64,000 bases of DNA, taken from Betaproteobacteria bacterium (lineage in GTDB: Bacteria > Pseudomonadota > Gammaproteobacteria > Burkholderiales > Casimicrobiaceae). Below the pieces are notes generated by a model. The model saw only the letters and a program-made list of their open reading frames with translations, searched no databases and was not told the DNA's origin. Within the stretch, counting starts at the first letter, position 1, and the number at the start of each line of letters is the position of its first letter. A program made the position numbers and the translations under genes. The DNA is taken from NCBI GenBank assembly GCA_029884335.1, contig JAOUIA010000002.1:34474-98473 (forward strand), read 5' to 3'. Shown here one piece after another: positions 5,307 to 58,291 of the stretch.

Positions 5307-5354
5307 CGGCTAGCGGCGTTCCACCGGGCGGGGGGCGTCGAGCTCTCCCGCCTT

Positions 5355-5459
5355 GTCATTCCCGCGCAGGCGGGAATCCGGCGTCTTTGCGACGCAACGA
5401 CGCCGGGTCCCCGCCCCCCGACCGCAATCCCCGGGGGCAGGCTGCGCGGAGACGACGAC
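5355..5459. repeat. CGTC-type REP inverted doublet; right unit carries a 27-bp insertion
   Basis: gtcattcccgcgcaggcgggaatcc ... gggtccccgcc[27 bp]tgcgcggagacgac; same family as at 26556, 45599 and 51361. Confidence 0.75.
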
Positions 5460-26539: not shown

Positions 26540-26555
26540 CGCTTCACTTTCCGAT

Positions 26556-26652
26556 CGTCATCCCCGCGCAGGCGGGGATCCCGTGCCGTTGCACTCCCGC
26601 AGTGGAGTGCCGTGCCGAGAGTCGCTGGATCCCCGCCTGCGCGGGGATGACG
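26556..26652. repeat. CGTC-type REP inverted doublet
   Basis: Perfect 26-bp inverted repeat cgtcatccccgcgcaggcggggatcc at 26556-81 / 26627-52, between convergent genes. Confidence 0.85.
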
Positions 26653-27346: not shown

Positions 27347-29364
<2,018 letters not shown>

Positions 29365-29400
29365 GTGAGGGGGCAACGTTACGCCAAACGGCCTCCGCTG

Positions 29401-32563: not shown

Positions 32564-32637
32564 GCGGGTGTAGTTCAATGGCAGAACGGCAGCTTCCCAA
32601 GCTGCATACGAGGGTTCGATTCCCTTCACCCGCTCCA
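32564..32637 (+). tRNA. tRNA-Gly (CCC)
   Basis: gcgggtgtagttcaatggcagaac...gcagc-ttcccaa-gctgc...ggttcgattcc...cccgctcca; 74 nt with encoded CCA. Confidence 0.96.
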
Positions 32638-44567: not shown

Positions 44568-44758
44568 AGTGTCCCGTACCGGAAGTTCCTTGCACAAGGA
44601 CGAGCGAGAAATGACGCGCTGCATCGTTGCCGGTCCTGCGGGCATTCGCGATACCCGCTGCGACCGGCGTCGCGCAGCGCGCCATTTTCGTCGTCCTTGC
44701 GCGAGCGGAGGTGGTTGCTGCGCTGCGATAGGGCAAGGAACTTCCGGTACGGGACACT
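44568..44758. mobile_element. 191-bp MITE with perfect 26-bp TIRs
   Basis: AGTGTCCCGTACCGGAAGTTCCTTGC at 44568-93 and its reverse complement at 44733-58; second copy at 2053-2136. Confidence 0.82.
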
Positions 44759-45500
44759 ACCGCGCCCGCGCGCTCGCGGCGAAGCTGCGCTGGCCGCGCG
44801 GCCACGGCGAGGGAAGGATCGCGACGTCGGCGAAACCCGCGGCGCCGAGCACCGTGGCGACCTCTTCCTCGTCGAGCCAGGTCATGCCCAGCGTCTCGTC
44901 CTCGCGCTCGAGCGCGGCGCCGCGCGCGCGGCGCTCGTAGCGGTTGCGCATCGCGAGCTGCCGCGACGACGCGTCCACGGTCGTCTCGCTGCGCAGCGTG
45001 ATGCGCGCGCCGTCGTCGAGCGTGACCGCGCGCACCTCCACCAGCGGCGCGCCGGGCGGGTTGACCGCGACGTCGGGCACGCCGAGGTCGAGCAGCAGCA
45101 GGCCGGGTGGAACGAGGTGCGCGCGAATGCGCTCGAGCGCTCGGCGCATCGCGCCGGGATCGACGAGAAGCTGCAGCGAGGACGCCGCGACGAACGCCGC
45201 GCCGTAGCGGAACGGCAGGTTCAGCGCGGCGACGTCCTGGCGGAACAGCGGGGTGGCGAGGCCCTGCGCGGCGAGCCGCGCCTCGCACGCCGCGAGCATC
45301 GCCGCGGAGTCGTCGGCGCCGTGGACGTGGAAGCCCTCCCGCAGCAGCGGCACGAGCAGGCGGCCCGACCCGCACATCGCCTCCAGCACCGGCCCCGCGT
45401 CGCGCGGCAGGCGCCGCGCGTACCACGCGACCTCGTCCCCGCCCGCGAAGCCCTTGTCGGCGTCGTAGAACTGCCGGCAGAGTTCACCGTAGGCAGCCAC
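44757..45500 (-). CDS. Class I SAM-dependent methyltransferase
   Basis: VLEAMCGSGR, GADDSAAML and HLVPPGLLLLD motifs. Confidence 0.85.
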   Translation of the reverse strand: MAAYGELCRQFYDADKGFAGGDEVAWYARRLPRDAGPVLEAMCGSGRLLVPLLREGFHVHGADDSAAMLAACEARLAAQGLATPLFRQDVAALNLPFRYGAAFVAASSLQLLVDPGAMRRALERIRAHLVPPGLLLLDLGVPDVAVNPPGAPLVEVRAVTLDDGARITLRSETTVDASSRQLAMRNRYERRARGAALEREDETLGMTWLDEEEVATVLGAAGFADVAILPSPWPRGQRSFAASARAR

Positions 45501-45598
45501 GTCTCAAGACCCGAAGCGACGGCATGCGCCACTGCTGCTGCGCTGCGCTAGGGGCGTCCTGCCTCCGACGAAGATGACGCGAATGCCTGACATCCGTT

Positions 45599-45695
45599 CG
45601 TCGTCCCCGCGCAGGCGGGGACCCAGTGTCTCTGGATCCTCCGAACGTACAGCGGCATTGAACGTCGCTGGGTCCCCGCCTGCGCGGGGACGACG
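45599..45695. repeat. CGTC-type REP inverted doublet
   Basis: cgtcgtccccgcgcaggcggggaccca at 45599-625 and its reverse complement at 45669-95. Confidence 0.85.
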
Positions 45696-46217: not shown

Positions 46218-47156
46218 TCATGGCCGGGAACTCGCGTCGAGCAGGTCGCGCAGCGCGGCGCAGATCGCCTCGACGTGCGCCCGGGCGGCCGGCACGGCGC
46301 CGGTCCAGCGCAGGAAGCCGTGGATCATGCCGTCGCAGGCGACCAGCCGCACCGGCACGCCGCGCTCGCGCAGCCGCCCCGCATAGGCGAGGCCCTCGTC
46401 GCGCAGCACGTCGGCCGCGGCGACCGCGACCACGGCGGGCGCGAGGCCGGCGACGTCGCCGGCGGCGAGCGGCGACAGTTCCGGGTCGTCGGCCTGCCCG
46501 TCGGGATCGTAGGCCTGCCAGTACCAGCGCATCATCGCCGCCGTGAGATTGTGTCCCTCGGCGAAGCGGTCGTACGACGCGGACTGCGCGCGCCGGTCGA
46601 CGGTGGGGTAGAGCAGGAACTGCGCGGCGGGCTGCGGCGAGCCGTGGCGCCGCAGGCGCAAGGCGAGCGCCGCGGCCAGGTTGCCGCCCGAGCTGTCGCC
46701 GCCGACGACGAGCCGGCTCGCGTCGGCACCCAGCGTGGCGGCCTCGCGCTGCAGCCAGTCCCAGGCGGCGTGGACGTCGTCGAGCGCGGCCGGATAGCGG
46801 TGCTCCGGCGCGCACGCGTAGTCGACCGCCACGACGATCGCGCCCAGGCGATTGGCGAGCTGGCGGCACACGCGGTCGTGCGATTCCAGCGAGCCGGTGA
46901 CCCAGCCGCCGCCGTGCGCGAACAGCAGCGCCGGCAGCGGCGCCTTCGCCGCCGGCCGATAGATGCGCGCCGGCACGACGCCGCGCGCGCCTCCTGCGAT
47001 CGACGCGTCGCGGACGTCGTCGACCGGCTCGGGCTCGCCGCCGAGCAGCTTCGGCGCCGACTCGGCGGCCGAGCGCAGCGCCGCGACGTCGGGCGGCATC
47101 GCCGGCGGCTTGGCGAAGACGGTGGCGAGCAGGCGCGAGATGTCGGGGTCGAGCAT
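46218..47156 (-). CDS. Alpha/beta hydrolase (HSL-family esterase)
   Basis: HGGGW, GDSSGG nucleophile, DVLRDEG and HGF motifs. Confidence 0.92.
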   Translation of the reverse strand: MLDPDISRLLATVFAKPPAMPPDVAALRSAAESAPKLLGGEPEPVDDVRDASIAGGARGVVPARIYRPAAKAPLPALLFAHGGGWVTGSLESHDRVCRQLANRLGAIVVAVDYACAPEHRYPAALDDVHAAWDWLQREAATLGADASRLVVGGDSSGGNLAAALALRLRRHGSPQPAAQFLLYPTVDRRAQSASYDRFAEGHNLTAAMMRWYWQAYDPDGQADDPELSPLAAGDVAGLAPAVVAVAAADVLRDEGLAYAGRLRERGVPVRLVACDGMIHGFLRWTGAVPAARAHVEAICAALRDLLDASSRP

Positions 47157-47237
47157 GCGGCAAGCGTTTCGCACTCCGCCGGCCGCTGTCAAGCTGCGCG
47201 CCGCGGCCGCGGGCGCGCTGATCTACACTTCCCCTCC

Positions 47238-47307
47238 AGCGCCGATTTGATCCGCGGCTTCACGGGCCGCGCAGCTTGCGGGCGCTTAACAAATCCAGCT
47301 AAAGCGG
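47238..47307 (+). promoter_or_regulatory. SAM-II riboswitch (long-loop variant)
   Basis: AGCGCC-GAUUUG...GCUUGC-GGGCGCU-UAA-CAAAUC-CA-GCUAAAG pseudoknot pattern upstream of metH. Confidence 0.85.
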
Positions 47308-47313
47308 CACGCG

Positions 47314-47349
47314 AAACCCGCTCATGCCGCCGGCTGAACGGGTTTTTTT
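47314..47349 (+). terminator. Intrinsic terminator downstream of the SAM-II aptamer
   Basis: AAACCCG...CGGGUUU stem ending in a U7 run, 17 nt before the metH ATG. Confidence 0.7.
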
Positions 47350-47365
47350 GCGTCCCCACATAGCC

Positions 47366-48400
47366 ATGCAGCCCGACCGCACCGAAGAGCTGAAGCGCCT
47401 GCTGGACGAACGCATCCTCGTGCTCGACGGCGCCACCGGCACGATGATCCAGCAGCTGCGCCTCGGCGAGGCCGACTTCCGCGGCCCGCCGTCGTGCGGG
47501 CTCGCGCACCACACGCACGACGTCGGAGGCGACAACGACCTGCTGTCGCTGACGAAGCCGGACGCGATCGCGGCGATCCACGACGCGTACTTCGCCGCCG
47601 GCGCGGACGTGATCACGACGAACACGTTCACCGCGACGTCGATCGCGCAAGCCGACTACGCGCTCGAGGGCCGCGCGCGCGCGATGAATCGCGCTGCCGC
47701 GGCGATCGCCCGCGAGGTCGCCGACCGCTGGACGGCGCGCACGCCGGACCGGCCGCGCTTCGTGGCGGGCTCGCTGGGGCCGACGAACCGGACGGCCTCG
47801 ATCTCGCCGGACGTCAACGACCCCGGCGCGCGCAACACCTCGTTCGACGAGCTGCGCGACGCTTACCGCGACGCGGCCGAAGGGCTGATCGACGGCGGCG
47901 CCGACCTGCTGCTGGTCGAGACCGTGTTCGACACGCTGAACGCGAAGGCGGCGCTGTTCGCCATCGAGGAGGCGTTCGACGCGCACGGCAGCCGCCTGCC
48001 GCTGATCGTGTCGGGCACGATCACCGACGCGTCGGGCCGCACGCTGTCCGGCCAGACGCCCACGGCGTTCTGGCACTCGGTCCGCCACGCCCGGCCGCTC
48101 GCCGTCGGGCTCAACTGCGCGCTTGGCGCTGCGCTGATGCGGCCCTACATCGAGGAAATCGCGCGCGTGGCGGACACCTACGTCAGCTGCTACCCGAACG
48201 CGGGGCTGCCCAACCCGATGTCGGAGACCGGCTACGACGAGACGCCGCAGGAAACGGGGCGCTTCGCGGCCGACTTTGCGCGCAGCGGCTTCGTCAACCT
48301 GATCGGCGGCTGCTGCGGCACGACGCCCGAGCACATCCGCGCGATCGTGGAAGCCGTGCGCGGCGTGGCGCCGCGCCGTTTCGCGCGCGAGGCGGGATGA
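47366..48400 (+). CDS. metH: Methionine synthase, homocysteine-binding half (split MetH, N-terminal part)
   Basis: LDGATGT, TNTF, ETVFD, GLNCALG, YPNAGLP and GGCCGT motifs. Confidence 0.92.
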
Positions 48401-48417
48401 TGCGCCCGGGTGCGCGC

Positions 48418-48629
48418 CCCCTCACCCCCGGCCCCGCCTCCGCACGGTCGGCGCGAACGCGCGGCGTCGCGTGTCGGCGGGCTGCGGCGACTCGCTCTTG
48501 CCGTCGATCCCCGCTTCGCGGGGGCCCTCGCCGGCTGCTCGCGCCGCTCCCTCCCCGCTGCCGCGGGGCGAGGGGAGACTCCTTCTCCCCTCTCCTGCCG
48601 TCAGGCGGGAGAGGGGCCGGGGGTGAGGG
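48418..48629. repeat. CCCTCACCCC-type inverted-repeat element between the metH halves
   Basis: Perfect 17-bp inverted repeat ccctcacccccggcccc at 48418 / 48613-29; internal cccctctcc...ggagagggg hairpin. Confidence 0.7.
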
Positions 48630-48632
48630 CCG

Positions 48633-51311
<2,679 letters not shown>

Positions 51312-51360
51312 TGCAGCGACCTGCAATTGAAGAAACGTGCTGGCATGGGCACAACCCATT

Positions 51361-51430
51361 GTCGTCCCCGCAAACGCGGGGACCCGGCGTCTCTCGACGA
51401 CGCTGGGATCCCGCCTGCGCGGGAATGACG
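51361..51430. repeat. CGTC-type REP inverted doublet
   Basis: gtcgtccccgcaaacgcggggaccc ... gggatcccgcctgcgcgggaatgacg. Confidence 0.75.
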
Positions 51431-51440
51431 CCGAGAATGA

Positions 51441-52724
51441 ATGCACGTTTCGACATGCGTGAGTCGGTCAACTAGCGCGGCTGCCCGGGCACGCCGTCGA
51501 CAATCTGTAGCCCACGGGACGACGCGTCGATGTCCGGGCACGAAGAATGCGTGTCCAGTGCGCGTGGAACCGGAGAACAAGCGCGCGGCTTCGCCCGAGC
51601 TCGAACTCGTCGACTATGTGCCGACCAACGTCACGCGTGCGCCGGTCGATTGCGCGAATGACGCGATCGACGTCGACTTGCCGCGGGTCGCCGTAGCGCA
51701 CATCGATCCTCATTTCGCGGCGGCGGCACGCGAGCATTCGCGTGGCGTGGTCGACCCCGCTTTGTGGAAACGCGCGGTGTCGCTGGCCGATGGCGACGAG
51801 GCCGCTGCCGTCGCGCCGTACCTGCGGGCGCGGGCGACGATGCTCAAGCTCGCGCAGCAGCGCCGGGCTTCCGCGCGTCCCGCGTCGCCGCCGCCACCGC
51901 CGCAGGAGTCCCCGAATCCTGGACGCGAACCCGGGTCGGCCGGGGCGGCCGCGTGGTCCTTGCTCGAGCCGCGGCGCCGCGTCTTGCTGTTCGCTTGCGC
52001 TGGCGTCGCCGCCGTGGCGCTCGTCGTGACGGCGTGGACTTGGCCCGGGCGAGACGCATCGCCCGTCACAGCGGTGCCCGTGAAGACCAGCGCCGCGCCC
52101 AGGGCGCCGGCGCCCGCTCCCGTCGCCGTGGTGGCGCCGCCCTCGAGCACGGACTTCGCTGCAAAGGTCGAGGACCTGCGCAACGCCGGCAACTGGAACG
52201 TGCTTGTCCTGCACGCTGCCGAGTGGACGCGCAAGGAGCCGGCAAACGCCGCTGGTTGGGCGGCGCTCAGCGCCGGCTACGCGAAGCTGGGCCAGATCGA
52301 CGAGTCTTTCGAGGCTGCGAAGCAGGCCGTCGCGCTCGACGGCGCCAACCCGGCGCACTTGCGGCGCCTCGCCGACGCCTACGTCGGCCTCGACCGCCCG
52401 GCGGATGCGCTGGTCCACGTCGAGAAGCTGCTTGCGCTCGACGCGCGCGACGTGGGCGCGCTCGCGCAGGCGGGCACGCTCTACCTCGCGCTCGGCAGGC
52501 TGCCGGACGCGCGCAACGCGTTCGATCGCGCACTGGCGCTCGATCCGTCGGGCCACGTGCCGGCCTGCGGGGCCGTCGAGGTCGCACGGCGCCAGGGGCG
52601 CACGAAGGACGCCGAAGTCCTCGCGAAGGGCCTGAAGGACGCCGGCTGCGGCGCGGCGCCGGCGGGGCGGGCCGAGTCCGTTCCGGTGCCCGCCCGCGCG
52701 TTGCCGTCTGCTGCGCGCCGCTGA
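51441..52724 (+). CDS. Single-TM TPR protein
   Basis: Pro-rich linker, TM VLLFACAGVAAVALVV, C-terminal TPRs (AAGWAALSAGY, ALAQAGTLY); start uncertain. Confidence 0.7.
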   Translation: MHVSTCVSRSTSAAARARRRQSVAHGTTRRCPGTKNACPVRVEPENKRAASPELELVDYVPTNVTRAPVDCANDAIDVDLPRVAVAHIDPHFAAAAREHSRGVVDPALWKRAVSLADGDEAAAVAPYLRARATMLKLAQQRRASARPASPPPPPQESPNPGREPGSAGAAAWSLLEPRRRVLLFACAGVAAVALVVTAWTWPGRDASPVTAVPVKTSAAPRAPAPAPVAVVAPPSSTDFAAKVEDLRNAGNWNVLVLHAAEWTRKEPANAAGWAALSAGYAKLGQIDESFEAAKQAVALDGANPAHLRRLADAYVGLDRPADALVHVEKLLALDARDVGALAQAGTLYLALGRLPDARNAFDRALALDPSGHVPACGAVEVARRQGRTKDAEVLAKGLKDAGCGAAPAGRAESVPVPARALPSAARR

Positions 52725-52746
52725 TTCGGTTGCGCGCGGCACGCTG

Positions 52747-52846
52747 ACCGCTTGCGGCAGTGCGGCTCGCGGAGCTGCACCGGGAACCCGCCCGGCGCCC
52801 TGAGGCAGGTGCCGGGCCCGTAGCCGTGGTCCTCGATGCCTTGAAC
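52747..52846 (-). pseudogene. Possible 3' relic of a VOC/glyoxalase-family gene cut at GTTC
   Basis: Minus frame VQGIEDHGYGPGTCLRAPGGFPVQLREP resembles VOC C-termini, by pattern recognition only. Confidence 0.4.
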
Positions 52847-52969
52847 GATGGGCAACTCCACCGCACCGAGTTCCAGCAAGTCACGTTGTCACGGATTGAC
52901 GCTGGCGAGCCGACCGGGACATGGAGTGGTTGCGCGTCGTCGCGGAGGTGTTTCGCCGCGTTGCGCGGG
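52847..52969 (-). mobile_element. IS91-family oriIS end, copy A
   Basis: 123-bp ungapped homolog of 55855-55977; minus strand ends GTTGCCCATC followed by GTTC. Confidence 0.7.
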
Positions 52970-53058
52970 AGACGCGCGCCCGCCGACGTGCGCGCCGGTT
53001 GACATGCCGGGAGTCTTTCACGGACGCCCGTCAAACTGCTGAACGCTGCGCTACGGGA

Positions 53059-55815
53059 TCAGCCAGCCGGATTGCCGATCCATGCCAGCACCTCCGCGAT
53101 CGCCTGTTCGGACGGCAACGCCGCCCCTGCCGCAACGGTGGCCGCTGCTGCACCTTCTCCCAGCACCTCACGGCATGCCGCGATGATCGCGTCGTATTGC
53201 TCCCGCGTATCGTGCGTTCGTGGCGTGGCGATGGCGTGGCGCAAGGCGTCGGCGGCGCCGCACAGATGGGCCGCCTTCTCGTGCGACGCCTGCCGTGTCA
53301 TCAGCGCCGCCACGGCTTCGAGGCAAAGCACGACTTCGTGCTGATTGCCGATCTCCTTGCTGGTTGCGAGAGCGCTGTGGAAGTGCGTGCGGGCCAGTGC
53401 CAGGTCGCCCTGAGCGAGGGCGATCTCGCCCAGGTGTCGCACCAGTTCCAGTTCGAATTCGCGGACACCGAACTCTCGTGCCGTCGCCAGCGCCCGCTCA
53501 TGCAGCATCCGTGCTTGCGCAAACTCGCCTTCGCGCTGCGCCAGGAAACCGAGGTGACTCAACGACGTCGCTTCTTCCATCGGATTGTCGAGCGCGCGGC
53601 TGAGCTCGAGGGAGCGTTCCGCCGCTGACTGGGCCTCGCGGAATCGTCCACGCGTCACGGCGAGCGCGGCGAGGTTGTTGAGCACGCGAGCTTCCATGCC
53701 GCGGTTGCCTGTGGCCTGGTGAATGGCTACTGCTTGCTCGAGAAAGGCCTGGGCACCGACGTCGTCGGCCTGATGGATCGCCACCCCTCCCAGGTTGCTC
53801 AGCACGCGGCCTTCTCCCGTGCGGTCGCCGAGTTCACGGCTGAGTGCCAGCGCGGCCTCCAGCTGGGATCTGGCAGCGGTGATGTCGCCGAGTCGCCAGG
53901 CAAGCGTGCCGGATGCGTGCAATGCCTTCAGGTAGGCGGAGGTACCGGACTGGCTGGTGGCGTGGGCCAGTGCGGCAAGGCACCACCGAAGACCCTCGCG
54001 CGCGTGGCCGCGGTGCGCCCAGAACCGGTAGAGCGCCCCGCAAAGGCGCAAGCCGGTCTCGTCGTCGTCTGTCCCGTCGATGCTGAAATCGAGCGCCGCC
54101 CGCAGGTTGTCGTGCTCGACATCGAGTCGCGCCATCCAGCCCGGCTGCTCCTGCCCGCCCTCCAGGTACGGCTCCGCCGTTTCGGCAAGCTCCAGGAAGC
54201 AGCCGACATGGCGCATGCGGACGGCATGGCGCGTGTCCAGCTTGTCGAGGCGATCCCGCGCGTACTCGCGGATGGTTTCCAGCATGCGATAGCGCGCCCC
54301 GTCGCCGTCCGGCACCACGAGCGACTTCTGGGTCAGGCTGACCAGGAGCTCAAGCACGTCGTCCCGTGCAAGATCCTGATCTGCACACACGGCTTCTGCA
54401 GCCGGCAATGTCCAGCCGCCAACGAACACCGATAGCCGGGCAAACAGCATCTTCTCGCCGGCACCGAGGAGGTCGTAGCTCCAATCGATCAGCGCCCGCA
54501 GCGTTTGCTGGCGTGGAAGCGCGCTGCGGGCCCCTCCGGTCAGCAGGCGAAAACGGTCGTCGAGGCGCCCGCAGATCGTCGCCACGCTGAGCACGCCCAC
54601 GCGGGCCGCAGCCAGTTCCAGCGCCAGCGGAATGCCATCCAGCCGGGCACAGATCTGCGCGACCAGGTGCACGTTGCCCTCGCTCAACGCAAACTCCGGC
54701 AGTCGGAGCCGCGCTCGCTCGACGAAGAGTCGGCCGGCGTCGGAACGCGCCGCGTCCTCGGCACGCGACTCGGGTCCCGGCAGTGCAAGCGGCGGCAACG
54801 GAAACGTCTGTTCGCCGGAAACATTGAGCGGCTCGCGGCTGCTCACGAGCACGCGGACATGGGGCGCGGCGTGCAGCATCGCGTCGACCAACGTGGCGCA
54901 GGCGCCGACCAGATGCTCGCAATTGTCGAGAACGAGAAGCAACCGGCGTGAAGCGAGATGCTCACACACGGTCTCGACAACGGATGTGCCCGTGGCCTCC
55001 CGCAGGCCCAGAACCTGCGCCACCGCCGTCGGCACCAGCGTAGCGTCGACGATCAACGCGAGTTCGACAAGCCAGGCACCATCCGGATAGGAGTCGAGGA
55101 GGTCGGCGGCGATCTGCAGCGACAGACGGGTCTTGCCGATGCCGCCCGGTCCGACGATGGTCAACAGGCGCGCGCCCCCGAGCAGCGCGCGAGCCTGGGC
55201 AAGTTCCCGCTCGCGACCGATGAATGAAGTCACCTGCTGGGGCAGGTTGTGCGGGATGGCCTCGAGCGAGCGCAGGGGTGGGAATTCCCGCCGCAGATCT
55301 TGATGCACCACCTGATAGGCGCGGGCCGGCGCAGCCAAGCCACGAAGCCGGATCATCCCAAGGTCGCTGAGCGAGACCCCTGCCGGCAGGCGGCCCGCCA
55401 GAAGTTCGGCCGCGCTTTGCGAAAGCAGCACCTGCCCGCCGTGCGCTGCACCCATGATGCGCGCTGCCTGGTTGACTGCAGTGCCGAAGTAGTCGCCATC
55501 GCGGTGCTCGACGGCGCCGACGTGCAGCGCACAGCGAACCCTGACGGGTATGCCGGAGGTTGCTGCAGGATCGGCCAACGCCCGCTGGATCGCCAGTGTT
55601 GCTTGCAGTCCGTTGAGCGGATCGTCGAAGGCGGCAAAGATGCCGTCCCCCGTCGATTTCAGTATCGTGCCGAGGCTGGACTCCACTGCTGCGCGCAACA
55701 TCGCATCGTGGCGTGCCAACGCGTCCCGCATCCGATCCGGCTCCTTCGCCCACAGACCGGTGCTCCCCTCGATGTCGGTGAAGAGCAAGGCCCTGACCAC
55801 GGAGGCGTCATGCAC
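53059..55815 (-). CDS. Class III cyclase + NB-ARC-like ATPase (COG3903-like) + TPR protein
   Basis: FTDIEGST, LKSTGD, VNQAARI, GPGGIGKT, LLVLDNCEH, LDGIPLALELAA, then TPRs. AAGGA SD before GTG 55815. Confidence 0.9.
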   Translation of the reverse strand: MHDASVVRALLFTDIEGSTGLWAKEPDRMRDALARHDAMLRAAVESSLGTILKSTGDGIFAAFDDPLNGLQATLAIQRALADPAATSGIPVRVRCALHVGAVEHRDGDYFGTAVNQAARIMGAAHGGQVLLSQSAAELLAGRLPAGVSLSDLGMIRLRGLAAPARAYQVVHQDLRREFPPLRSLEAIPHNLPQQVTSFIGRERELAQARALLGGARLLTIVGPGGIGKTRLSLQIAADLLDSYPDGAWLVELALIVDATLVPTAVAQVLGLREATGTSVVETVCEHLASRRLLLVLDNCEHLVGACATLVDAMLHAAPHVRVLVSSREPLNVSGEQTFPLPPLALPGPESRAEDAARSDAGRLFVERARLRLPEFALSEGNVHLVAQICARLDGIPLALELAAARVGVLSVATICGRLDDRFRLLTGGARSALPRQQTLRALIDWSYDLLGAGEKMLFARLSVFVGGWTLPAAEAVCADQDLARDDVLELLVSLTQKSLVVPDGDGARYRMLETIREYARDRLDKLDTRHAVRMRHVGCFLELAETAEPYLEGGQEQPGWMARLDVEHDNLRAALDFSIDGTDDDETGLRLCGALYRFWAHRGHAREGLRWCLAALAHATSQSGTSAYLKALHASGTLAWRLGDITAARSQLEAALALSRELGDRTGEGRVLSNLGGVAIHQADDVGAQAFLEQAVAIHQATGNRGMEARVLNNLAALAVTRGRFREAQSAAERSLELSRALDNPMEEATSLSHLGFLAQREGEFAQARMLHERALATAREFGVREFELELVRHLGEIALAQGDLALARTHFHSALATSKEIGNQHEVVLCLEAVAALMTRQASHEKAAHLCGAADALRHAIATPRTHDTREQYDAIIAACREVLGEGAAAATVAAGAALPSEQAIAEVLAWIGNPAG

Positions 55816-55854
55816 GCGGCAGTTCCTTTCAAGGGCCGGCGCCGAATGACCAAG

Positions 55855-55977
55855 GATAGGCAACACAACCGCACCGAGTCCAGGCGGATCAGGCGATCAC
55901 GGGTTGACGCGGGCGAGCCGACGGGCACAGGGAGTGGTTGTGCGTCGCCATGGGGGTGTCTTTGCGCGTTGCGCAGG
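55855..55977 (-). mobile_element. IS91-family oriIS end, copy B
   Basis: Minus strand ends GTTGCCTATC followed by CTTG; preceded by a transposase C-terminal relic. Confidence 0.75.
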
Positions 55978-55978
55978 T

Positions 55979-56035
55979 GGCCCGGGCCGGTGGCGTGATC
56001 GGCTCACCGAGGTGGGCGAGGATGTCGCGCACGCG
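55979..56035 (-). pseudogene. IS91-family transposase C-terminal fragment
   Basis: RVRDILAHLGEPITPPARA resembles the ILxHLGxPxxPP..AR tail of IS91/ISCR transposases. Confidence 0.6.
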
Positions 56036-56071
56036 AAGGCGAATCCCGGCAAGCTGGCGCTGGGCAGCGCC
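56024..56071 (+). pseudogene. 48-bp fragment of a Bug-family gene
   Basis: Encodes VAHAKANPGKLALGSA; 42/48 nt identical to the inverted 56577-56624 segment. Confidence 0.55.
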
Positions 56072-56081
56072 CGCGCGGGCT

Positions 56082-57059
56082 TCAGTCGGCCTTCGCCCCC
56101 ACATCCTTCGCGATCTTCGTCCACTTGGCGATTTCGCTCGCGATGAAGCGCGCGAACTCGTCGGGCGCGCCGCCGACCACGTCGAGCCCGCCGCCGGCGA
56201 GCTTCGCCTTGACGTCGGGCATCGCCATCACCTTGTTGAACGCGTCGTTGAGCTTGCGCACGACGTCCGGCGGCAAGCCCGCCGGCCCGACGACGCCCTG
56301 CCACGCCGTGGCCTCGAAGCCGGGGAGGCTCTCGCCGATCGTGGGAAGCGCGGGCGCGTTCGGCGAGCGCTTCGGGCTCGCCACCGCGAGCGCCACGAGC
56401 TTGCCGGTGGCGACGTGCGGCATCAGGTTCGCCTGGTCGCCGATGACCACCTGGATCGTGCCGCCGAGCAGGTCGGTCACCATCGGCCCGCCGCCCTTGT
56501 AGGGCACGTGCGCGAGGTCGGTCCCGGTGCGCGACTTCAGGAGCTCGGTCGCCAGGTGCGGCAGGCTGCCGCTGCCGGCGCTGCCGTACGCGAGCTTGCC
56601 GGGGTTCGCCTTCGCGTGGGCGACGAGCTCGTTCACCGATTTCACCGGCACCGAAGGGTGCGCGACGAGCACGTAGTTGACGTCGACCGTGCGCACGACC
56701 GGGGTCAGGTCCTTCAGGGGGTCGTACGGCATCTTCGCGTAGATGCCCACGTTGATCGCGAGCGAGGCGATGTTGCCGAGCAGCAGCGTGTACCCGTCGG
56801 GCGGCGACTTCGCGACGAACTCCGCGCCGACCATGCCTGACGCGCCCGCCTTGTTCTCGACCACGACCGTCTGCCCGAGCGCCTCGGAGAGCGGCTGCTG
56901 GACGACGCGAGCGTAGAAGTCGACGGCCCCGCCCGGCGGGAAGGGGACGATCACGCGGACCGGCTTCGACGGGAACGGCTGCGCGACGGCGCCGGCTGTG
57001 ACGGCGAGGGCGGCCGCACCCAGCACCAGCGCCGCCCTGTGAGCGAACTTGATCAGCAT
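56082..57059 (-). CDS. Bug/TctC tripartite tricarboxylate transporter substrate-binding protein
   Basis: VPFPPGG, VENKAGASG, PDGYTLL and HVPYKGG motifs. Start re-called to 57059. Confidence 0.93.
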   Translation of the reverse strand: MLIKFAHRAALVLGAAALAVTAGAVAQPFPSKPVRVIVPFPPGGAVDFYARVVQQPLSEALGQTVVVENKAGASGMVGAEFVAKSPPDGYTLLLGNIASLAINVGIYAKMPYDPLKDLTPVVRTVDVNYVLVAHPSVPVKSVNELVAHAKANPGKLAYGSAGSGSLPHLATELLKSRTGTDLAHVPYKGGGPMVTDLLGGTIQVVIGDQANLMPHVATGKLVALAVASPKRSPNAPALPTIGESLPGFEATAWQGVVGPAGLPPDVVRKLNDAFNKVMAMPDVKAKLAGGGLDVVGGAPDEFARFIASEIAKWTKIAKDVGAKAD

Positions 57060-57157: not shown

Positions 57158-58291
57158 ATGACCAGTATCGCAAAGATCGACCGGTGGGTGTTGCGCGCCC
57201 CCATCGAGCGGCCGCTCGCGAACGCATTCGGCGCGATGAGCAACCGGCCCGCCCTGTTCGTCCGGATCACTGCGGACGACGGCGCGTGGGGGTGGGGCGA
57301 GGTCTTCTGCAACTTTCCCCAGGTCGGCGCCGAGCACCGCGCGCGGCTGCTCGACTCGGTCTTCGTCCCGCTGCTCGCCGCAGCTGCCGACGATCCCGCG
57401 ACCGTCCGCGCGATGCTCGACAGGCGGACGCGCCAGATGGCCATCCAGTGCGGCGAGCCGGGACCGTTCGCGCAGATTGCCGGCGCGATCGACCAGGCGC
57501 TCTGGGACCTCGCTGCGCGCCGCGCGGGCGTTCCGCTCTGGCGGCACCTCGGCGGCAACGACCGCGCTGCTGCGGTGTACGCGAGCGGCATCGGTCCCGA
57601 CGATGTGGTCGACGTCGCGCTGGCGAAGCGCGATGCCGGCTACCGTGCGTTCAAGCTCAAGGTGGGGTTCGGGCCGCAGCGCGACGTCGCGAACCTGCGC
57701 GCGCTGCGCGTTGCGCTGGGCGAGGGCGCGACGATCATGGCCGACGCGAACCAGGCGTGGTCGCCCGACGATGCGGTGGCGCGCATCGCGGAACTGGCGC
57801 CGCCGCGTCCGCACTGGATCGAGGAGCCGATGCTGGCCGACGTTGCGCCCGCCGCGTGGCGCGCGCTGGCCGCGCAGAGCCCCGTTCCTCTCGCGGCCGG
57901 CGAGAACCTGCGCGGGGCGCAGTTCGCCGAGGCGATCGACGGCGGCTGGCTGCGCTTCGTGCAGCCGGACGTCGGCAAGTGGGGCGGCGTGTCGGGCGCG
58001 CTGGAAGTGGCGCGGCACGCGCGCGAGCGCGGCATCGCGTTCTGCCCGCACTGGCTCGGCGGCGGCATCGGCCTCGCGCACTCGCTGCACCTGGTCGCCG
58101 CAGCCGGCACGAGCGCGAGCTTCGCCGAGGTGGACGCCAATCCGAACCCGTTGCGCGAGCGCGTCTGCCCGATGACGGTCGAGGAGGGCGCGGTCAGGCT
58201 CGGCGATGCGCCCGGCATCGGCTTCGAGCCGGACCTCGCGGCGCTGGCGGGATTCGTCGTCGACGCCGGCGCGCGGACGCCGGGGCGTTGA
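57158..58291 (+). CDS. Mandelate racemase/muconate-lactonizing enzyme family protein
   Basis: GWGE, IDQALWDL, FKLKVG, MADANQ, WIEEP, AAGEN and QPD motifs. Confidence 0.9.
   Translation: MTSIAKIDRWVLRAPIERPLANAFGAMSNRPALFVRITADDGAWGWGEVFCNFPQVGAEHRARLLDSVFVPLLAAAADDPATVRAMLDRRTRQMAIQCGEPGPFAQIAGAIDQALWDLAARRAGVPLWRHLGGNDRAAAVYASGIGPDDVVDVALAKRDAGYRAFKLKVGFGPQRDVANLRALRVALGEGATIMADANQAWSPDDAVARIAELAPPRPHWIEEPMLADVAPAAWRALAAQSPVPLAAGENLRGAQFAEAIDGGWLRFVQPDVGKWGGVSGALEVARHARERGIAFCPHWLGGGIGLAHSLHLVAAAGTSASFAEVDANPNPLRERVCPMTVEEGAVRLGDAPGIGFEPDLAALAGFVVDAGARTPGR

Follow-up and report, generated by a model that had tools for sequence, protein, structure and literature searches.

The window analysed here is a 64-kb stretch of DNA (contig JAOUIA010000002.1) from a high-GC betaproteobacterium recovered from a sediment or estuary metagenome. 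It contains two direct repeats, termed copy A and copy B in the following, which flank exactly one gene on the minus strand (53059-55815, 918 amino acids). This gene starts with GTG behind the ribosome-binding site GAAAGGAA and encodes a class III nucleotidyl cyclase joined to an NB-ARC/AAA (STAND) ATPase and TPR repeats (Pfam matches Guanylate_cyc, NB-ARC, AAA_16 and TPR_12). The comparisons presented below point to gene capture by a member of the IS91 family of insertion sequences (IS) as the probable origin of this arrangement.

The repeats (A, 52844-52980; B, 55852-55988) are 137 nt long, ungapped and 76% identical (blastn E value 8e-23) at a distance of 3008 bp. They include the two same-orientation 123-bp repeats reported in a preliminary description of this DNA. 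On the minus strand copy A ends in ...GTTGCCCATC|GTTC with its tip at 52847, and copy B in ...GTTGCCTATC|CTTG with its tip at 55855, as had also been stated there. Two conserved core patterns have exactly 2 occurrences in the 64 kb, where shuffled sequences predict 0, and no other repeat family of this kind was detected in it. Alignment with dispersed copies from elsewhere and with orthologues of copy B delimits the relic of copy A to 52847-53003 on the minus strand (tip ...GGTGGAGTTGCCCATC). The tetranucleotide GTTC directly past its tip (52843-52846, minus strand) reads CTTC in the orthologous loci of sister lineages (L036, L037, L041 and L052). The relic of copy B occupies 55855-55987 on the same strand (tip ...GCGGTTGTGTTGCCTATC), as delimited by the repeat, the tip pattern and the alignment of orthologues. 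It is 89-90% identical to its counterparts in L036, L037 and L041 but lacks 68 internal bp that are present in the sister loci. Copy B matches the tip pattern GCGGTTGAATTNCCTATCC with 2 mismatches (0 matches expected by chance). The tip of copy A deviates from the family tip at at least 4 of 19 positions and was missed by this pattern when up to 3 mismatches were allowed.

To place the repeats in a wider context, metagenomes of the Joint Genome Institute (JGI) were scanned with the core pattern. The scan returned 13 loci, two of which (L041 and L052) are orthologous to the locus in the window, and the other 11 carry the element in unrelated contexts. The aligned copies share a core of about 150 nt (...CCCGGGCCACCCGCGCAACGCG...GCACAACCACTCC...GTCGGCTCGCCCGCGTCAACCCGTGA...GCGGTTGRAYTKCCTATCC), and similarity among all of them is lost at one and the same point, directly past the CCTATC(C) of the tip ...GGTTGAATTGCCTATC(C), where unrelated flanks begin. 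In several copies, the sequence left of the core translates in frame to ...CPxCGxxMRIIAFITDGPTVRDILVHLGEP..PARGPPLWE..DYEFDQRVAW*. This tail peptide has 586 relatives in the protein database, the best 120 of these 586 being fragments of 66-140 amino acids, and over 131 amino acids the tail family shares 47-55% identity with annotated IS91-family transposases of ISPps1 elements, which are found on plasmids of Pseudomonas, Comamonas, Hydrogenophaga and others. The dispersed copies keep transposase tails of 80-139 amino acids, and one of them (L046) retains the HxH-motif region. Within the window, the best tblastn match of an IS91-type transposase tail is a C-terminal remnant of 15 amino acids from an IS91-family (Y2/HUH) transposase (VRDILAHLGEPITPP; 55988-56032, minus strand, read from 56032 to 55988; query P0172, E value 2e-6). 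It stands in front of copy B, where a transposase-like tail had been described before. In the sister loci 24-39 amino acids of this tail are kept (E values 4e-13 to 9e-15).

The boundary of the element agrees with that of ISPps1. The mutual homology of two ISPps1 copies, on pADP-1 and pOS401, ends right past GCGGTTGAATTTCCTATCCGT, 185 nt beyond the transposase stop codon, and the ISPps1 end GCGGTTGAATTTCCTATCC is matched at 18 of 19 positions by the end of copy B in the sister locus L037 (GCGGTTGAATTGCCTATCC). In the dispersed copy L049 the tip lies about 215 nt past the transposase stop codon. In the IS91 family the conserved oriIS is located 167-232 bp downstream of tnpA (167 and 232 bp in the cases reported; PMC5737581, PMC6218425). 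The oriIS and terIS ends are functionally distinct, a GTTC or CTTG tetranucleotide adjoins oriIS, and no target duplication is formed (PMC13181058, PMC5737581, PMC6218425). Tetranucleotides of this type adjoin the tips of the individual copies. Copy A has GTTC and copy B CTTG, as the preliminary description had stated, L047 and L048 abut CTTC, and the other subfamily as well as ISPps1 abut CGTT, CGTC or CGTG, which become GTTG, GTCC and GTGG if the boundary is set one base later. Taken together, the homology of the tail, the shared tip and the published features of the family show that the two repeats derive from the oriIS side of an IS91-family insertion sequence, undescribed so far and related to ISPps1, and represent its right-hand ends in a decayed state. 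The earlier assignment of the repeats as IS91 oriIS ends is thereby borne out, both by the ISPps1-like tip and by the IS91-family transposase tail that precedes several of the other copies.

The element itself was found in metagenomes. Among 185,579 representative species genomes, the tip pattern gave 27 matches, all of them chance matches without extension, so that the IS subfamily is not among these genomes at that stringency. Among 72,556 plasmids no close match was found at the DNA level, only matches to the coding tail at 68-76% identity. The NCBIfam model for ISCR clade Ia matched the tail weakly, with an E value of 0.001 that is far below the cut-off. The dispersed copies on JGI contigs (L042-L053) are truncated on the transposase side at different points, and all of them have kept the oriIS tip. 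In L046 the HxH-motif region is joined directly to the last ~100 nt, L053 and L045 begin at ARGPPLW, and L043 and L044 retain just ~75 nt. Such varied truncation could reflect premature termination of rolling-circle transfer, or could simply be due to deletions.

That the repeats are not mobile-element DNA at all, but a duplicated regulatory region, a structured RNA or riboswitch, an attC site, or fragments of paralogous coding genes, was also considered. An ungapped repeat of 76% identity with one copy in the 5' region of a gene would suit such an origin, and the adjoining fragment of a glyoxalase gene has a reading frame that continues through the tip of copy A (ELPIVQGIEDHGY). However, the region has no match to an Rfam family. 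In single folds CAACCAC...GCGGTTG can pair, but fold energies are no better than those of shuffled sequences (z scores of -0.2 to +0.7), and there is no consensus structure to speak of; a structured RNA or riboswitch was rejected for these reasons. An integron attC site or cassette had been suggested by motifs of the type GCRCAAC...GTTG and was rejected as well, because by inspection the core sites do not match RYYYAAC/GTTRRRY and because the dispersed copies carry the transposase tail. An origin from TctC or cyclase pseudogene fragments was not supported by tblastn, which returned only a 16-amino-acid inverted piece of TctC outside the repeat and no coding similarity to either gene within the element. 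The remnant of a tandem cyclase paralogue, or a target duplication of 15-19 bp (GGYTGARTTGCCYATCCTT), was dropped as an explanation since the dispersed copies identify the motif as the tip of the IS. The reading frame of the glyoxalase gene through the tip (ELPIV..., beyond QGIEDHGY) is spurious, homology to glyoxalase beginning only past the GTTC. With the element present in 11 unrelated contexts and a transposase tail in front of it, the dispersed copies and the tail homology refute a non-mobile origin, to which we attach hardly any weight.

The protein encoded between the repeats was also called on three metagenome contigs, and its best named homologues come from metagenome-assembled genomes of Burkholderiales and Casimicrobiaceae. 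As had been suspected in the preliminary description, the gene is less GC-biased than its flanks: the GC content at third codon positions is 78.5%, as compared to 86.6-97.4% in the neighbouring metH, TPR, TctC and MR_MLE genes, and the GC profile dips to 66-69% between flanks of 71-76%. The possibility that the gene belongs to an anti-phage defence system was dismissed, as PADLOC gave TPR-only matches.

The tip of copy B lies on the same strand as the cyclase gene and 39 nt upstream of its GTG start codon at 55815, in line with the spacing of 40 bp given earlier. When aligned with the sequences that precede the closest homologues elsewhere (L031 and L061, 87% and 84% identical at the nucleotide level), these 39 nt (55816-55854, minus strand, including the CTTG at 55851-55854) prove to be the native leader of the cyclase gene. 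The upstream regions of L031 and L061 resemble each other over about 55 nt, including an AT-rich TAAAT/AAAAT box. The window resembles them only up to about position -33/-37, which is where tip B begins, and the AT-rich box is replaced by the tip of the IS. On the 3' side, similarity to L031 and L061 ends at the cyclase stop codon. The gene has thus been trimmed to its leader and its native promoter is gone. None of the closest homologues elsewhere (L031, L061, L034 and L035) carries IS ends, and homologues at 76% and 71% amino acid identity reside in yet other contexts without the element.

At its present location the gene lies between a TPR protein gene (51558-52724, plus strand), which is preceded by metH (48633-51311, plus strand), and a gene for a TctC/Bug-family binding protein (56082-57059, minus strand), which is followed by an MR_MLE enolase-superfamily gene (57158-58291, plus strand). 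In a relative represented by L038-L040, the TPR and TctC genes are separated by just 101 bp. The amino acid identities of this relative to the window are 92% for metH, 95% for TctC and 90% for MR_MLE. Compared to this empty site, the window contains an additional block of about 3.3 kb (roughly 52740-56064), which consists of a glyoxalase fragment, copy A, the cyclase gene, copy B and the transposase tail. The block is likewise absent from more distant relatives. The empty-site comparison proposed in the preliminary description thus argues that the gene is not ancestral here, and the cyclase-STAND-TPR gene is an acquisition foreign to this site. Two samples (3300036980 and 3300037339; L031/L032 and L038/L040) both contain the empty TPR-TctC site together with an 86%-identical cyclase homologue elsewhere. 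This homologue lies between a DAO/GCV_T oxidase gene and a P-type ATPase gene, has its own upstream region and is free of IS relics. In that relative, the gene family may have its native place between the oxidase and the ATPase.

On the side of the TPR gene, the block ends in the C-terminal fragment of a glyoxalase/VOC-family pseudogene (QGIEDHGYG...VQLREPHCRK; 52751-52842, minus strand), found by tblastn with a glyoxalase encoded on the same contig. It corresponds to the last ~30 residues, with E values of 3e-12 for the window and 1e-15 for L036 when L001:1061-1411 was used as the query. Tip A thus abuts its tetranucleotide inside a truncated glyoxalase-like gene, which has the look of an IS91-type insertion junction.

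Both insertions are heavily decayed. A tblastn search of the window with two full-length IS91-family transposases (E < 0.01) did not reveal an intact transposase, and by inspection nothing resembling the left-end hairpin of ISPps1 is present upstream of the cyclase gene. The transposase tail of copy B is cut at 56032/56033 by a 48-nt piece of TctC in inverted orientation (56033-56080, plus strand; AKANPGKLALGSARAG; tblastn E value 2.5e-8). Located between the TctC stop codon and the transposase tail, the inverted copy (48-64 nt) belongs to an inverted repeat of 81% complementarity (56011-56074 versus 56574-56637). The transposase of copy B was truncated at this breakpoint, which stems from an old inversion or deletion. 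A more diverged version of the inverted copy occurs in L037, although no TctC gene is found there.

A further deletion is seen in the sister lineages. L036/L041 and L037/L052 show the same arrangement next to the TPR gene, all of them with copy B, and their cyclase genes are 95% identical to that of the window and 97% identical to each other. At the site of copy A, however, the cyclase stop codon is followed at once by GAGTTGCCCATCCTT|CAAGG... in L036, L037, L041 and L052. These loci lack 202 bp, and all that is left of copy A is the final 13-15 nt of its tip. Because an unoccupied site would not contain part of a tip, the 202 bp were lost in a single deletion, on the branch that gave rise to L036 and L037. 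The sister lineages have thus kept the gene but very little of copy A. Among orthologous loci, sequence identity is ~92-93% for the relics, 92% for the pseudogene fragment beside them and 96% for the cyclase coding sequence. Since the relics diverge like the adjacent pseudogene, there is no sign of selection on them. In L037, NfeD/Band7 genes are found where the window and L036 have TctC, with a breakpoint just left of the transposase tail, so that this region appears prone to rearrangement.

The reading that we prefer, at a probability of roughly 0.6, is a one-ended capture and insertion of the IS91 type that was followed by loss of the transposases. In IS91 and IS1294, one-ended transposition that co-mobilizes DNA beyond terIS accounts for 1-14% of events (PMC13181058). 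According to this scheme, the IS that gave rise to copy B would have been resident first, with its oriIS tip against a GTTC-type site in the glyoxalase-like gene. A second IS, the later copy A, would have been located downstream of the cyclase gene at an earlier location, its terIS side facing the gene. One-ended transposition of this second IS would then have carried along the promoter-less cyclase gene, terminating ~37 nt upstream of the start codon, and the resulting unit of cyclase gene and IS would have integrated at the nick site of the resident oriIS of copy B. Integration at this nick site would explain why both tips share the same orientation, why tip B abuts the leader and why tip A abuts the glyoxalase fragment. 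Deletions would subsequently have removed both transposase genes, leaving 157 nt of copy A, and 133 nt plus the 15-amino-acid tail of copy B, and the 202-bp deletion in the sister lineages would have followed later.

Several points weigh against this scheme. The order of events is one that we infer, and no intermediate, for example an intact IS downstream of a cyclase gene, was found. Both insertions lack their terIS ends, and the 5' part of the glyoxalase gene is missing too, so that the left limits of the insertions are lost. The 55 nt that separate the cyclase stop codon from the part assigned with certainty to copy A (53004-53058, minus strand) align globally with the region past the stop codon of full copies no better than shuffled sequences do (p 0.09-0.7); the proposal that the left end of copy A is the transposase stop codon was dropped, as this alignment is not significant. 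The spacer of L038 shows only marginal similarity to the glyoxalase fragment or to other relics of the block (p 0.03-0.06), so that a resident and an imported glyoxalase fragment are both possible. The boundary between tip and flank is ambiguous by 1 nt, CCTATC|CTTG or CCTATCC|TTGG, with native loci reading ATTGG. Imperfect palindromes lie subterminally in the oriIS region of the IS91 family, and here the RNAalifold consensus of the ends, at -2.4 kcal/mol with almost no covariation, gives no clear sign of a conserved hairpin. Finally, a scan of 52700-56150 gave no site matching the sigma-70 consensus.

A serious rival to the one-ended capture is that two unrelated IS insertions flank a gene that had arrived otherwise, for instance within a larger recombined block, and that both insertions decayed without the IS having had any part in the transfer. 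Over the aligned core, A and B are 70-77% identical, as compared to 79% between B and L047, a copy from elsewhere. As B is at least as similar to L047 as it is to A, the two copies A and B were probably different IS variants on arrival, which would suit independent insertions. The region between the TPR gene and the resident glyoxalase gene is moreover a rearrangement hotspot, as seen from the exchange of TctC/MR_MLE for NfeD/Band7 in L037, and on the TPR side the block ends in the glyoxalase fragment rather than in an IS tip. On the other hand, unrelated insertions leave unexplained why homology to other cyclase loci stops at tip B and within 55 nt of copy A, and why the gene and both relics point in one direction. 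We therefore regard this history as possible but clearly less probable than one-ended capture.

The preliminary description had gone further and proposed a transposase-less rolling-circle vehicle. In such a cassette the 3 kb between the tips would be mobile, a transposase supplied in trans nicking tip A and copying leftwards until termination at tip B, after which the circle would reinsert. Two direct oriIS nick sites might then suffice to define a mobilizable cassette, with start at the downstream and stop at the upstream tip, similar to duplicated origins of rolling-circle plasmids. If this were true, units of a gene and an oriIS without a transposase would be moved in trans by resident IS91-family elements, and the many 5'-truncated, tip-retaining IS copies would be products of the same process. 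The geometry would fit, as two tips of the same orientation with canonical tetranucleotides (GTTC and CTTG) bracket exactly one promoter-less gene, and one-ended transposition of IS91 needs only oriIS and the tetranucleotide, terIS being dispensable (PMC5737581, PMC13181058). Furthermore, the same communities harbour related copies of the IS, whose ends are represented in a metatranscriptome. However, the combination of gene and ends occurs in a single context: the window, L001-L003, L036, L037/L052 and L041 all share the junction on the TPR side, and the ends are absent from five other contexts of cyclase homologues, the closest homologues mentioned above among them lacking such ends. The two ends differ at about a quarter of their positions and are internally deleted, tip A has drifted from the family tip, terIS and transposase are missing, and the sister lineages lost copy A without losing the gene. 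Neither a circle joint (...GTTGCCCATC to (C)TTGGTCATTCGG) nor an excision joint (...GTTGCCTATC to GTTCAAGG) was found in the assembled DNA contigs, which drop rare forms and hence cannot show them. The vehicle could thus not be upheld, and we consider such a cassette, as well as the notion that the two nick sites alone define it, improbable. The structure looks immobile now, like a fossil of rolling-circle gene capture.

With tip B in place of the native promoter, transcription of the cyclase gene must either start within the relic, in a manner similar to ISCR1, or read through from TctC. In ISCR1, the promoters PCR1-1 and PCR1-2 lie within the 232-bp oriIS region (PMC6218425). That oriIS of copy B drives the gene, as had been suggested earlier, is plausible because the insertion removed the native promoter. 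One metatranscriptome contig from a relative similar to L041 extends from the 3' end of TctC ~95 nt into the relic; these contigs are undirected, and carry-over of DNA is possible. In the RNA run X23, the conserved core of the IS end (window 55884-56017) is covered by many contigs of ~92% identity, to a word depth of ~83 as compared to 0-9 over the cyclase gene. As the X23 contigs run into unlike sequence, they derive from other copies in the community, and again DNA carry-over is possible.

When compared to known systems, the relics are closest to ISPps1 from pADP-1 and the Comamonadaceae plasmid pOS401, with which the element shares a transposase C-terminal tail (47.5-49% identity over 131 amino acids), a non-coding stretch of about 185-215 nt past the stop codon and the near-identical terminal motif GCGGTTGAATT(T/G)CCTATCC. 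In contrast, the non-coding end cannot be aligned with that of ISPps1 apart from the last ~25 nt, the DNA match is limited to the part of the coding tail noted above, and the window holds relics only, without transposase, terIS or lpd-fragment left end. The closest annotated tail (55% amino acid identity) belongs to an IS91-family transposase on the Aeromonas veronii plasmid pHD6448-1 (L056; NZ_CP087267, record 46267-51668). It has the same tip GGTTGAATTTCCTATCC. A resistance gene of like orientation, blaMOX-9, is located ~400 nt further downstream, similar to the resistance arrangements of ISCR elements. This transposase, however, is intact (471 amino acids), is located on a plasmid and is associated with a resistance cargo.

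The position of the cyclase gene is reminiscent of ISCR1 in complex class 1 integrons, where a gene of the same orientation lies directly outside oriIS, at 0-1211 bp as compared to 39 nt here, and has lost or lacks a strong promoter of its own (PMC6218425). Unlike in ISCR1, the cargo here is a STAND signalling protein instead of a resistance gene, the locus is chromosomal in an uncultured sediment betaproteobacterium, and the outward promoter is putative. One-ended units of IS91 and IS1294 resemble the locus in that adjacent genes are captured on the terIS side and oriIS with GTTC/CTTG is the sole fixed end, and the sdpA circle of Sphingobium herbicidovorans in that the cargo is bracketed by two direct IS91-type copies (PMC5737581, PMC13181058). 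Those systems retain transposases that are intact, and their movement or circular forms have been observed, whereas here the transposases are gone and neither a second site nor a circle was seen.

Other repeats and ordinary features of the window are mentioned for completeness. A hairpin resembling repetitive extragenic palindromic (REP) elements, GTC(G/A)TCCCCGCGCAGGCGGGGA(T/C)CC, occurs in four intergenic copies (5345-5391, 26547-26593, 45590-45636 and 51351-51397), the last of which lies between metH and the TPR gene. An element of ~188 bp similar to miniature inverted-repeat transposable elements (44570-44757) has the terminal inverted repeats TGTCCCGTACCGGAAGTTCCTTGC at 44570-44593 and 44734-44757, and a shorter relative is located at 2053-2136, with 68 internal nt that are 93% identical (2073-2140 versus 44695-44762). 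Its inner motif TTGCCCTATCG bears a faint resemblance to the IS91 tip. A thiamine pyrophosphate (TPP) riboswitch (29261-29371, minus strand, 64.9 bits) and a tRNA-Gly(CCC) gene (32564-32637, plus strand) complete this inventory.

Overall, the locus is no evidence for a novel type of mobile element. It adds to the IS91 family an element that is apparently abundant in uncultured Burkholderiales of sediments and estuaries, and since short, tip-retaining IS91 relics are easily missed, it should be helpful as an aid in annotation. Outside the field of antibiotic resistance, it offers a clean example of the IS91-family signature around a captured gene: a promoter-less cyclase-STAND signalling gene cut back to its leader and flanked by oriIS tips, a close relative in which the site is empty, and a step-wise decay that can be traced across three sister lineages. 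It would also provide a testable case of promoter replacement driven by an insertion sequence.

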